NCBI RefSeq assembly: GCF_030013595.1
Contig: NZ_CP122768.1
Origin: Escherichia coli
Lineage (GTDB): Bacteria; Pseudomonadota; Gammaproteobacteria; Enterobacterales; Enterobacteriaceae
Length of the DNA stretch: 64,000 bases
Reading direction: 5' to 3' (one strand)
Shown: positions 35,001-38,000 of the stretch, piece after piece
Numbering within the stretch: the stretch's first letter is position 1
Layout: each line of letters starts with the position of its first letter
Program-made: the position numbers

Positions 35001-38000
35001 ATGCGCTGCGTAATGGCCGAGTCTGGCAACTGGCGATTATCTACCTGACCATTCAGGTGGCGGTTTACGGATTAATTTTCTTCCTGCCGACCCAGGTTGC
35101 TGCATTGCTGGGGACAAAAGTGGGCTTTACGGCGTCGGTGGTCACCGCCATTCCGTGGGTTGCGGCCTTGTTTGGGACCTGGCTTATTCCGCGCTATTCC
35201 GATAAAACCGGCGAACGGCGTAATGTCGCAGCGCTGACATTACTGGCGGCGGGCATTGGTATTGGTCTGTCCGGGCTGCTTTCTCCAGTACTGGCGATCG
35301 TAGCACTGTGTGTTGCAGCCATCGGGTTTATTGCCGTGCAGCCGGTGTTCTGGACGATGCCGACACAACTGCTTTCCGGTACGGCGCTGGCGGCGGGGAT
35401 TGGTTTTGTAAACCTGTTTGGTGCAGTGGGTGGGTTTATTGCCCCGATCCTGCGCGTGAAAGCAGAAACGTTGTTTGCCAGCGATGCGGCGGGATTACTG
35501 ACGCTGGCAGCGGTGGCGGTCATCGGTTCGCTGATTATTTTCACTCTGCGTGTAAATCGCACTGTTGCGCAGACCGACGTGGCACATCATTAATAGGTTA
35601 AGGAACACCATGAACGCATTATTAAGCAATCCTTTTAAAGAACGTTTACGCAAGGGCGAAGTGCAAATTGGTCTGTGGTTAAGCTCGACTACTTCTTATA
35701 TGGCAGAAATTGCCGCCACTTCCGGTTATGACTGGTTACTGATTGACGGGGAGCACGCGCCAAACACCATTCAGGATCTTTATCACCAGCTACAGGCGGT
35801 AGCGCCCTATGCCAGCCAACCCGTGATCCGTCCGGTGGAAGGTAGTAAACCGCTGATTAAACAAGTCCTGGATATTGGCGCGCAAACTCTACTGATCCCG
35901 ATGGTCGATACTGCCGATCAGGCACGTCAGGTGGTGTCTGCCACGCGCTATCCTCCCTACGGTGAGCGTGGTGTCGGGGCCAGTGTGGCACGGGCTGCGC
36001 GCTGGGGACGCATTGAGAATTACATGGCGCAAGTCAACGATTCGCTTTGTCTGTTGGTGCAGGTGGAAAGTAAAACAGCACTGGATAACCTGGACGAAAT
36101 CCTCGACGTCGAAGGGATTGACGGCGTGTTTATTGGACCTGCGGATCTTTCTGCCTCGTTGGGCTACCCGGATAACGCCGGGCACCCGGAAGTGCAGCGA
36201 ATTATTGAAACCAGTATTCGGCGGATCCGTGCTGCGGGTAAAGCGGCTGGTTTTCTGGCTGTGGCTCCTGATATGGCGCAGCAATGCCTGGCGTGGGGAG
36301 CGAACTTTGTCGCTGTTGGCGTTGACACGATGCTCTACAGCGATGCCCTGGATCAACGACTGGCGATGTTTAAATCAGGCAAAAATGGGCCACGCATAAA
36401 AGGTAGTTATTGATATCAAAGGCCCATGGGGATCGGCTGTGGGCCTGTGTTAATTAGTGGTTATTCGCTGCCAGATCGGCTTCGCTTAGCTGGGTGGCCG
36501 CGAGCACCAGGTCACGATCAATGCCCTGTTCCAGCATGCGCAAGGCAATTTTAATGGCTTGTTCACGCATACCTTCCTGCAAACCTTCTAATTTACCCTC
36601 CTGCCAGCCTTCAAGCTTACCTTCCTGCCAGCCAATCTGATGCCCTTCCTGCCTCAGCCGTTCAGCAATAGTCATCAATCTCTCCTTTTAATGACAGTTC
36701 GGAATATCAGCATCAGTGAGTTGGGTTGTCGCCAGCACAATCTCACGTTCAAAGCCCTGCTCCAGCATGCGCAAGGCAATTTTAATGGCTTGTTCATGCA
36801 TGCCTTCCTGCAAACCTTCTAATTTCCCCTCCTGCCAACCTTCAATTTTACCTTCCTGCCAGCCTTCAATCTTACCTTCCTGCCAGCCAATTTGATGCCC
36901 TTCCTGCCGCAGCCGCTCAGCAATAGTCATCAATCTCTCCTTTTGTAGTGGTGAACGTTCGGCAATCTCCTGAATAAAACGGGTGAAACGGGAGGTATCG
37001 CCGCATTGCAGCAGATAATTAAACAGCGTTTGTAGCTGGCTGTCATTAGTGAAGCCTCTAACCAAAAGCGTGGTGATCCTGTCGACCATACCGATTAAAT
37101 CGCGGTCGCGAATATGCTTTTGAATCAGTTCAAGCAGAGCTATACGCCGATGTTGCATGATCTCATCGTCAGGTACGATGGTGATATCCACCAACGGAAA
37201 AGCTTCGGTGTACAACTGCCGGGCAAGTTGCGGATCGTCAAACTCATCCAGCCAGTTGAGTGAGTACGGGTAGGGCGAGGTTTCGCCATGATAAAACAGC
37301 AATGGCACCACCAGCGGAACTCTGTCATAGCCTTTATCCAGGTGACGCTGCATGGCGGCAGTGGCATAGCGCATTAGCCGAAAAGCCATATTCTTTTCTG
37401 CAGAGCTTTGATGTTCAATCACGCAGTAGATATAGCCTTCACTGTCGCTGGTTTCCACAGACCACAAAACATCCGAGTAGTAAGCGCGTAAACTTTTTTC
37501 AATAAAGCTGGTGGGTTCCAGGCGTAAAGTTTGCAGGTTGCAAAGCTTGCGCAGCGGCTCTGGTAGATGTATTTCCAGAAAATCCCGAGCGGTTTCGGGT
37601 GTGAACATAAAGGTTTTAAACACCGCATCATGCGGGGAGGAGGTTGTTGATTCGGTCATGGTTGTCCGTCACCTGATATTTATGATGACGCGACATTACG
37701 GTTATCCCAGGCCTTTGACATCTGCCAGTTTCAGCCTTTGCGAGACGTTTTCAGAGGAATTTTCACTGCGTTGCAACGCATACATTGGGCACGGAATCGT
37801 GTACGCAAAAATGCCCGGTAACAACATGCTTACCGGGCATCAGAAAGGAGTTTAAGCCAGCGCCTGGGCCAGCAGCGTAATCGGATGTTCGCAGCGAAGA
37901 CTTGTGGACATCTCAATCTGCCATTTGCAGGTTTCGCAGTCGGTAACCACCAGATCTGCGCCGCTTTCTTCTATCTGACGGAACAGTGGTGCGCCGATGG

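Follow-up and report, generated by a model that had tools for sequence, protein, structure and literature searches.

The rpnE (yfaD)-ypaA locus of Escherichia coli, which encodes a nuclease toxin and a small protein derived from the C-terminal domain of that toxin, is described here in a stretch of 64,000 nucleotides (nt) of contig NZ_CP122768.1 (RefSeq assembly GCF_030013595.1), referred to below as the window. An open reading frame (ORF) call on the minus strand gave a 323-codon ORF at 36688..37659, which is rpnE and specifies the full-length PD-(D/E)XK nuclease/toxin RpnE-L of 323 amino acids (aa), as assigned from the ORF, Pfam, NCBIfam and the RefSeq name. The 73-codon ORF of ypaA, a free-standing copy of the C-terminal (S) module whose product is also called RpnE-Ss, is located downstream on the same strand (36454..36675; ATG 36675-36673, TAA 36456-36454), and the synteny order is glpC-rpnE-ypaA-yfaU. 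The genes ypaA and yfaU/rhmA are convergent, and the space between them holds a GC-rich hairpin (36420..36446, no strand assigned) with a 10-bp stem including 6 GC pairs. The Pfam family PF04754 (Transposase_31/YhgA-like) matches residues 8-209 of RpnE at model positions 1-202 of 203 (E 2.7e-87). The residues D11, D63, E82, Q84, R94 and D165 are retained at RpnA numbering, as judged by position and local motif match (D11 in sphDav, D63 in yysDvl, E82 and Q84 in viEhQss, D165 in pdDe) and not by structural superposition; the roles of D11, D63, E82 and Q84 as catalytic residues are those reported for RpnA (PMC5350276). The initial annotation had taken the long gene for rpnB (yfcI). This name is wrong: the NCBIfam equivalog NF007418 scores 721 bits on the long ORF against a cutoff of 583, the neighbors are glpC and yfaU, the orthologue is labeled rpnE in RefSeq, and in the nomenclature of Kingston 2017 (PMC5350276) RpnE is YfaD and RpnB is YfcI. 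The NCBIfam model of RpnA scores 414 bits on the same ORF, below its own cutoff.

The expression of S modules from rpn genes has been studied in E. coli K-12. Retapamulin initiation peaks at internal start sites in each of the five rpn genes were reported in Meydan 2019 (bioRxiv 10.1101/520783), which also notes the resemblance of the internal rpnE product to the protein encoded by ypaA, an independent gene. Zhong 2023 (PNAS; PMC10400941) describes the small RpnS proteins as antitoxins of the toxic full-length RpnL nucleases, as the initial annotation had correctly stated, and ypaA as a second copy of RpnE-S, named RpnE-Ss. Binding and inhibition of RpnL by the cognate RpnS are reported there for RpnA, RpnB, RpnC and RpnP2; profiles of K-12 rpnE-ypaA with Onc112 and retapamulin (Fig. 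2E) are given together with the detection of SPA-tagged YpaA (Fig. 2H) and of tagged RpnE-S in K-12. The start-site mapping with retapamulin or Onc112 and the comparison of locus structure that had been proposed for this locus are consequently already available for K-12, the former as initiation data and as a tagged protein. Furthermore, RpnC-S is reported to inhibit RpnC-L only when both carry an equal number of four-residue repeats, one extra repeat in either partner abolishing inhibition (Fig. 4D), and the repeats are placed in the long first helix, which is the RpnS dimer interface. The study also notes that an rpnSs gene can disappear, either through deletion or because it becomes fused to the N-terminal region of rpn. 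A commentary (PMC10400984) suggests that a second copy decouples toxin from antitoxin and confers regulatory flexibility. A duplicated and separately translated S module was accordingly published in 2019 and 2023, and its presence in the window is no discovery. For comparison with the window, 16 E. coli loci (numbered with the prefix L) were taken at even spacing among 5,420 matching complete genomes, and the set of genomes with two module copies, including the window, numbers 13.

The two copies of the module share their translation start region. At the junction, the minus strand reads CAT TAA AAG GAG AGA TTG ATG ACT; the rpnE stop codon (TAA, 36690-36688) directly abuts the Shine-Dalgarno (SD) sequence AAGGAGAG of ypaA (36687-36680; junction 36680..36690, minus strand), and a frame check places the ypaA ATG 4 codons on in the same frame, 12 nt beyond the stop. 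The block AAGGAGAGATTGATGAC recurs inside rpnE at 36942-36926, where a second SD sequence AAGGAGAG (36935..36942, minus strand) precedes an in-frame internal ATG (36930-36928) and opens an 80-codon ORF (36688..36930, minus strand). Its product, RpnE-S, is the upstream module copy and constitutes the C-terminal domain of RpnE-L. The sequence AAGGAGAGATTGATG is identical in both copies, the one internal to rpnE lying at 36942-36928, and the 15-mer GGAGAGATTRATGAC has exactly two sites in the window even with two mismatches allowed, against an expectation of 0.10 in shuffled sequence. The features of an RpnS, an in-frame internal start with its own ribosome-binding site near the 3′ end of the rpn gene, are found in rpnE, start usage being known for the K-12 orthologue only. 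The features of an RpnSs, a separate ORF with its own ribosome-binding site, placed directly downstream and derived from the S module of its parent, are found in ypaA. It is almost certain that the locus is E. coli rpnE (yfaD)-ypaA, that RpnE-S is the product of the internal SD and ATG, and that ypaA is an in-frame tandem duplicate comprising SD, ORF and stop.

Alignment of the two modules is possible from the SD sequence through the stop codon, with a mean column identity of 88% in MAFFT and, in a global alignment, 204 identical positions among 230 aligned bases (88.7%, or 75% when gap columns are counted). The initial annotation had described the last 80 codons of the rpn gene and the 73 codons of ypaA as a direct tandem repeat of about 85% DNA identity, with a strong SD sequence for ypaA at the rpn stop codon; each of these statements holds in the window, and the figure for identity is a fair one. 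The similarity is unevenly distributed. In the 5′ two-thirds of the module 154 of 165 positions are identical (93.3%), with one 24-nt gap corresponding to two 4-aa repeats that are missing from ypaA, whereas identity falls to only about 65-77% over the last 65-80 nt. The repeat tract consists of four-residue (12-nt) xxxG units, of which translation and Tandem Repeats Finder (TRF) indicate 8 in RpnE and RpnE-S (36802..36897, minus strand) and 6, two fewer, in ypaA (36571..36642, minus strand); the TRF arrays themselves extend over 36803..36885 (period 24, 3.5 copies) and 36562..36633 (period 24, 3.0 copies). When the unit RQEG is counted, the runs of consecutive xxxG units number 7 in YpaA and 9 in RpnE-S. 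In the upstream copy, the last third has diverged and encodes a tail of 21 residues, referred to as E-type (36691..36756, minus strand), and ypaA ends in a different, Y-type tail (IDRDLVLAATQLSEADLAANNH; 36457..36525, minus strand). At the protein level, the first 19 residues and the 14 residues of helix 2 are identical between RpnE-S and YpaA, whereas 11 of 21 aligned residues differ in the region of the third helix and tail. For the same pair of proteins, the preprint 10.1101/520783 gives 98% identity, which disagrees with the K-12-derived locus L002, where 46 of 56 aligned residues (about 82%) are identical and gaps of 4 residues and 1 residue occur in addition.

The state of ypaA across genomes bears on whether it is a working gene or a remnant without function, left by a partial duplication of rpn. 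In favor of a remnant, ypaA is missing from about 40% of E. coli, and the Prokaryotic Genome Annotation Pipeline (PGAP) labels it a pseudogene in 11 of the 13 RefSeq loci with two copies that were retrieved, a count that includes a locus disrupted by IS2 (L016). On the other hand, its SD sequence, ATG and ORF are intact in 13/13 two-copy genomes, and all length changes are multiples of 12 nt and remain in frame. The part of ypaA outside the repeats has 12 synonymous and 6 nonsynonymous segregating sites and zero stop codons. For K-12, moreover, the protein has been detected and ribosome profiling with initiation inhibitors has been published, as described in the main text of PMC10400941. Decay is largely refuted by these observations and is regarded as highly improbable, and the initial proposal that ypaA is a dedicated expression unit and not a decaying fragment is supported. 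The PGAP entry reads 'hypothetical protein; incomplete; missing N-terminus' and is flagged as a pseudogene in L001, L002, L004, L005 and L007-L012, and an intact protein is called in only a few genomes (WP_000150343.1 in L006 and WP_000150333.1 in L015). The label is apparently a systematic annotation error that affects a small protein known to be expressed in K-12; in most genomes RefSeq still treats this gene as a pseudogene fragment.

The predicted structure of YpaA resembles that of an RpnS protein. In an AlphaFold2 (AF2) model with a mean predicted local distance difference test (pLDDT) score of 73, i.e., moderate confidence, helices are formed by residues 3-49, 54-61 and 65-70, and the long first helix of the RpnS three-helix bundle is present at that level of confidence. 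The top match of the model in a Foldseek search of the PDB is RpnA-S (7TH0; prob 1.00, TMt 0.74, E 0.088), and the sequence match between YpaA and 7TH0 is weak but specific (E 5.5e-4). RpnA-S, known from this crystal structure and from the RpnA L2S2 complex, shares with YpaA the three-helix fold and the long first helix, but it comprises 49 aa without an expanded repeat tract, whereas in YpaA helix 1 is enlarged by 7 consecutive xxxG units (residues 11-35). Glycine at each fourth position of a pairing helix is also characteristic of GX3-repeat helices, such as the deca-GX3 of Yae1/Lto1 (PF09811) and the GxxxG of FliH/YscL. The corresponding matches are weak (Yae1_N, E 3.5e-4; NCBIfam FliH models, E 1e-5 to 2e-8), and the resemblance is restricted to the repeat pattern, with no homology outside the repeat and scores far below the family cutoffs. 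The pattern suggests a glycine-stripe interface for helix-helix packing, the length of which is set by the repeat number. Free-standing DUF4351 (PF14261) genes, cited in the main text of Zhong 2023 as separate RpnS, likewise encode an RpnS-like protein as a gene of its own; in a Pfam scan PF14261 was not matched by YpaA, the only hits being Yae1_N, as given above, and a non-significant RepB_primase_C. With the PADLOC-DB v2 models RpnE gave only a marginal match (E 0.0019, 'putative invertase') and YpaA none, Rpn systems being absent from or later than that library. Designed pentatricopeptide repeat proteins, the top PDB matches by sequence, were rejected as an artefact of scores summed over many weak repeats, no stretch of which is significant alone.

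The sequence surrounding the two start sites gives some indication of how ypaA may be expressed. No terminator-like element was found between rpnE and ypaA, the hairpin at 36420-36446 being the sole one downstream of the pair, and a sigma-70 consensus scan of 36350-37900 revealed no promoter-like site, so that the internal promoter reported from differential RNA sequencing (dRNA-seq) was not located. RNA folding around both start sites gave nothing beyond shuffled controls (z 0.2 and 1.0), with no sign of SD sequestration or of a regulatory hairpin. Most likely, ypaA would be carried on the rpnE and rpnE-S transcripts, and YpaA may be translated by newly recruited ribosomes as well as by those that terminate at the rpnE stop codon. 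Co-transcription and coupling are plausible because there is no terminator between the genes, the SD sequence is strong and the spacing is 12 nt.

The repeat tracts of the two copies rarely agree within a genome. The numbers of units in RpnE-S and YpaA are 8/6 in the window and in L001, 2/3 in L002 (K-12 lineage, Keio strain), L012 and L015, 10/6 in L004, 7/4 in L005, 6/6 in L006, 10/8 in L007, 3/6 in L008, 7/2 in L009, and 7/3 in L010 and L011; they are thus unequal in 12/13 two-copy E. coli genomes. Across 19 loci, RpnE-S has 2-10 units and YpaA 2-8, and all differences are multiples of 12 nt. The within-genome mismatch, like the mosaic divergence discussed below, was not found by keyword search in the main text of Zhong 2023. 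The K-12 system of RpnE-L, RpnE-S and RpnE-Ss has the same locus, synteny, SD-ATG block, in-frame tandem module and pair of tail types as the window, but its 2 and 3 repeat units contrast with 8 and 6 here, its RpnE has 299 rather than 323 aa, and its YpaA has 61 rather than 73 aa. An allele at least 99% identical to that of the window occurs in only 2 of the 5,420 complete genomes. A free-standing module directly after its parent gene is also described for rpnC in the main text of PMC10400941; its origin is independent, and in the phylogeny of that paper each copy groups with the gene from which it derives.

These numbers bear directly on the suggestion of the initial annotation that ypaA is a gene-dosage variant of the toxin-antitoxin arrangement. 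As a backup antitoxin, YpaA would bind the C-terminal domain of RpnE-L in the manner of RpnE-S, increase the amount of antitoxin and raise the threshold for release of the nuclease. Several observations are compatible with this role: the same strong SD sequence is present directly downstream on what is likely the same transcript, the two proteins agree fully over the N-terminal 19 residues and helix 2, production of YpaA in K-12 is reported in the main text of PMC10400941, and PMC10400984 suggests decoupling of toxin and antitoxin by a second copy. Moreover, K-12 RpnE is inactive in toxicity, SOS and recombination assays and is the sole Rpn paralogue that is non-toxic on overexpression (PMC5350276). 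An extra dose of antitoxin, however, would call for a YpaA repeat number equal to that of the resident RpnL, as RpnC needs, whereas the window has 8 versus 6; in RpnC a mismatch of one repeat abolishes inhibition, again according to the main text of PMC10400941. In the tail, 11 of 21 aligned residues are different and synonymous divergence is saturated. If dosage were the selected function, one would expect the repeat numbers to be held equal by gene conversion or selection. The dosage role thus appears contradicted by the mismatch in 12/13 genomes, the RpnC matching rule and the tail differences, and is considered doubtful. From the repeat mismatch and the RpnC rule, YpaA should therefore fail to inhibit the RpnE encoded next to it. 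By extrapolation from RpnC, YpaA would be a diverged RpnS paralogue, with the xxxG run of its first helix two units shorter than that of the resident RpnE-L and RpnE-S and with a different third helix, and little or no pairing with the resident RpnE-L would be expected of it, whereas RpnE-S would be the true cognate antitoxin. This reading, in which YpaA is a diverged S paralogue and a poor partner of RpnE-L, RpnE-S is the cognate partner and the two modules form a recombining array, is given a slightly better than even chance.

The tails provide a further view of the history of the pair. The upstream copy always carries the E-type tail of 21 residues, and the ypaA tail is IDRD(L/Q)VLAATQLSEADLAANNH. 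In the method of Nei and Gojobori, the tails of the upstream copy and ypaA within a genome differ by a synonymous divergence (dS) of 1.6-2.6 (about 1.6 in the window) and a nonsynonymous divergence (dN) of about 0.31, whereas the 5′ parts differ by a dS of only 0.09-0.27 and a dN of 0-0.04, these dS values resting on 15-22 synonymous sites only; between E. coli and Escherichia albertii the same segments have a dS of 0.4-0.6. Because the tail dS lies above and the 5′ dS below the divergence of E. coli and E. albertii, the tails would predate the species split and the 5′ parts would be younger. This pattern implies that the module pair is a mosaic, presumably formed by gene conversion of the 5′ part or by import of one tail.

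Within the evenly spaced sample, about 55% of the genomes have two copies and about 42% a single rpnE, and one genome is disrupted by IS2. The Y-type tail is found in 4/4 sampled single-module E. coli loci (three with an intact rpnE and the one disrupted by IS2) as well as in E. albertii. L001 has in its upstream copy the very repeat tract that L007 has in its downstream copy, and in an Escherichia locus with a single module (L018) the tail is chimeric, resembling the E-type over its first half and the Y-type over the remainder. A cross-species scan for the SD-ATG block, using one genome per species, yielded 4 loci, among them single modules with a Y-type tail in E. albertii and in one other Escherichia genome. 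The exact 21-nt block occurs in an rpn gene of Citrobacter gillenii (L019) with an S module of 53 aa that lacks expanded repeats and carries the Y-like motif 'IDRDLVL'; the block also occurs once in a metagenome-assembled genome (MAG) of Bacteroidetes (L020), where no S-like ORF was found and where the match may be due to chance or contamination. The IS2 insertion interrupts rpnE in L016 (NZ_CP157104.1, strain UTME-10), and yfaU/rhmA is a truncated pseudogene in L014 and L016; in L016 it adjoins yfaY, which indicates that some lineages have lost the rhamnonate genes (yfaV-yfaX) by deletion.

Two homologous modules would be able to act as a recombining array in which repeat tracts are exchanged between the copies and the 5′ part is kept similar, and a crossover between them would yield single-copy rpnE alleles with a ypaA-type tail. 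The single-copy Y-type tails, the shared repeat tracts and the chimeric tail fit such recombination between copies, which corresponds to the fusion route described in the main text of PMC10400941. A rival idea is that ypaA is an orphan cassette, i.e., a spare C-terminal specificity module that is swapped into rpnE, or an immunity module that neutralizes non-resident RpnE variants. The single-copy rpnE alleles bear exactly the ypaA-type tail, the same tract is found at either position in different genomes, the 5′ homology is held at about 93% while the tails are distinct, and the chimeric tail of L018 agrees with an exchange. By contrast, a fusion that arises by deletion is irreversible and abolishes the array, the locus of E. 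albertii suggests that the single-copy Y-type tail may be ancestral, there is no evidence for selected switching or for encounters with a foreign RpnE-L, and ypaA is expressed, unlike silent cassettes. A cassette or immunity role is judged unlikely, and it is similarly improbable that ypaA is a deliberately mismatched second S module, the pair a recombining two-cassette array and YpaA non-cognate to the resident RpnE-L. Orphan C-terminal toxin and immunity modules sit downstream of cdiA and rhs genes; there, as here, a variable C-terminal module is repeated downstream, with a homologous 5′ stretch that allows replacement by recombination, but the downstream module of rpnE is an antitoxin-type domain, is translated and is present in a single copy.

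Taken together, the locus is probably best explained by ypaA being an expressed, selected and diverged paralogue of the S module in a recombination-prone two-module array. Several points weigh against this explanation or limit it. The prediction of poor pairing between YpaA and RpnE-L extends a rule shown for RpnC, where a one-repeat change was examined under overexpression, and partial pairing is plausible given the identical first 19 residues and helix 2. In K-12, RpnE is both the only Rpn paralogue that is non-toxic on overexpression and the only one accompanied by a further S gene, as would fit an additional capacity for antitoxin. Single-copy alleles with the Y-type tail could, as suggested by E. 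albertii, be ancestral instead of recombinant. Co-transcription and translational coupling of rpnE and ypaA, although plausible, are inferred only, the divergence estimates come from few synonymous sites, and the population sample is small, with 13 two-copy loci and with some same-length classes inferred, not sequenced.

Two further features of the window are independent of rpnE-ypaA. A second 323-aa ORF at 7823-8791 was considered as a further Rpn paralogue and rejected, as it is of equal length but unrelated. In addition, a complete IS10 is present at about 27194..28522, within 27185..28531, with an Rfam match to RNA-OUT at 27240..27309 (minus strand, 98.8 bits) and a 402-aa transposase ORF at 27302..28510 (plus strand). 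A 9-bp target duplication, GACATTGCT, lies on either side of the element, and the duplicated 9-mer includes the ATG of the adjoining ORF, which we take to be arnB/pmrH. The element is inserted 4 nt upstream of the start codon of the arn operon, with its pOUT end facing the operon, and could uncouple the modification of lipid A with 4-amino-4-deoxy-L-arabinose (L-Ara4N), and with it polymyxin resistance, from control by PmrA. The IS10-arn junction was found in 0/5,426 complete E. coli genomes.

The main value of this analysis is a correction, namely that the locus is rpnE-ypaA and not rpnB and that its arrangement has already been published. The locus is otherwise of modest note for the near-constant inequality of repeat number between its two copies. 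If YpaA is non-inhibitory toward RpnE, the second copy needs another role, for example in specificity switching, cross-immunity or modulation. If the pair were indeed a two-cassette array, a crossover or gene conversion would reset the repeat number and the tail of the C-terminal domain of the toxin in one step, the cognate intragenic antitoxin would be reset simultaneously because toxin and antitoxin overlap, and YpaA might neutralize other RpnE variants or modulate RpnE-S.

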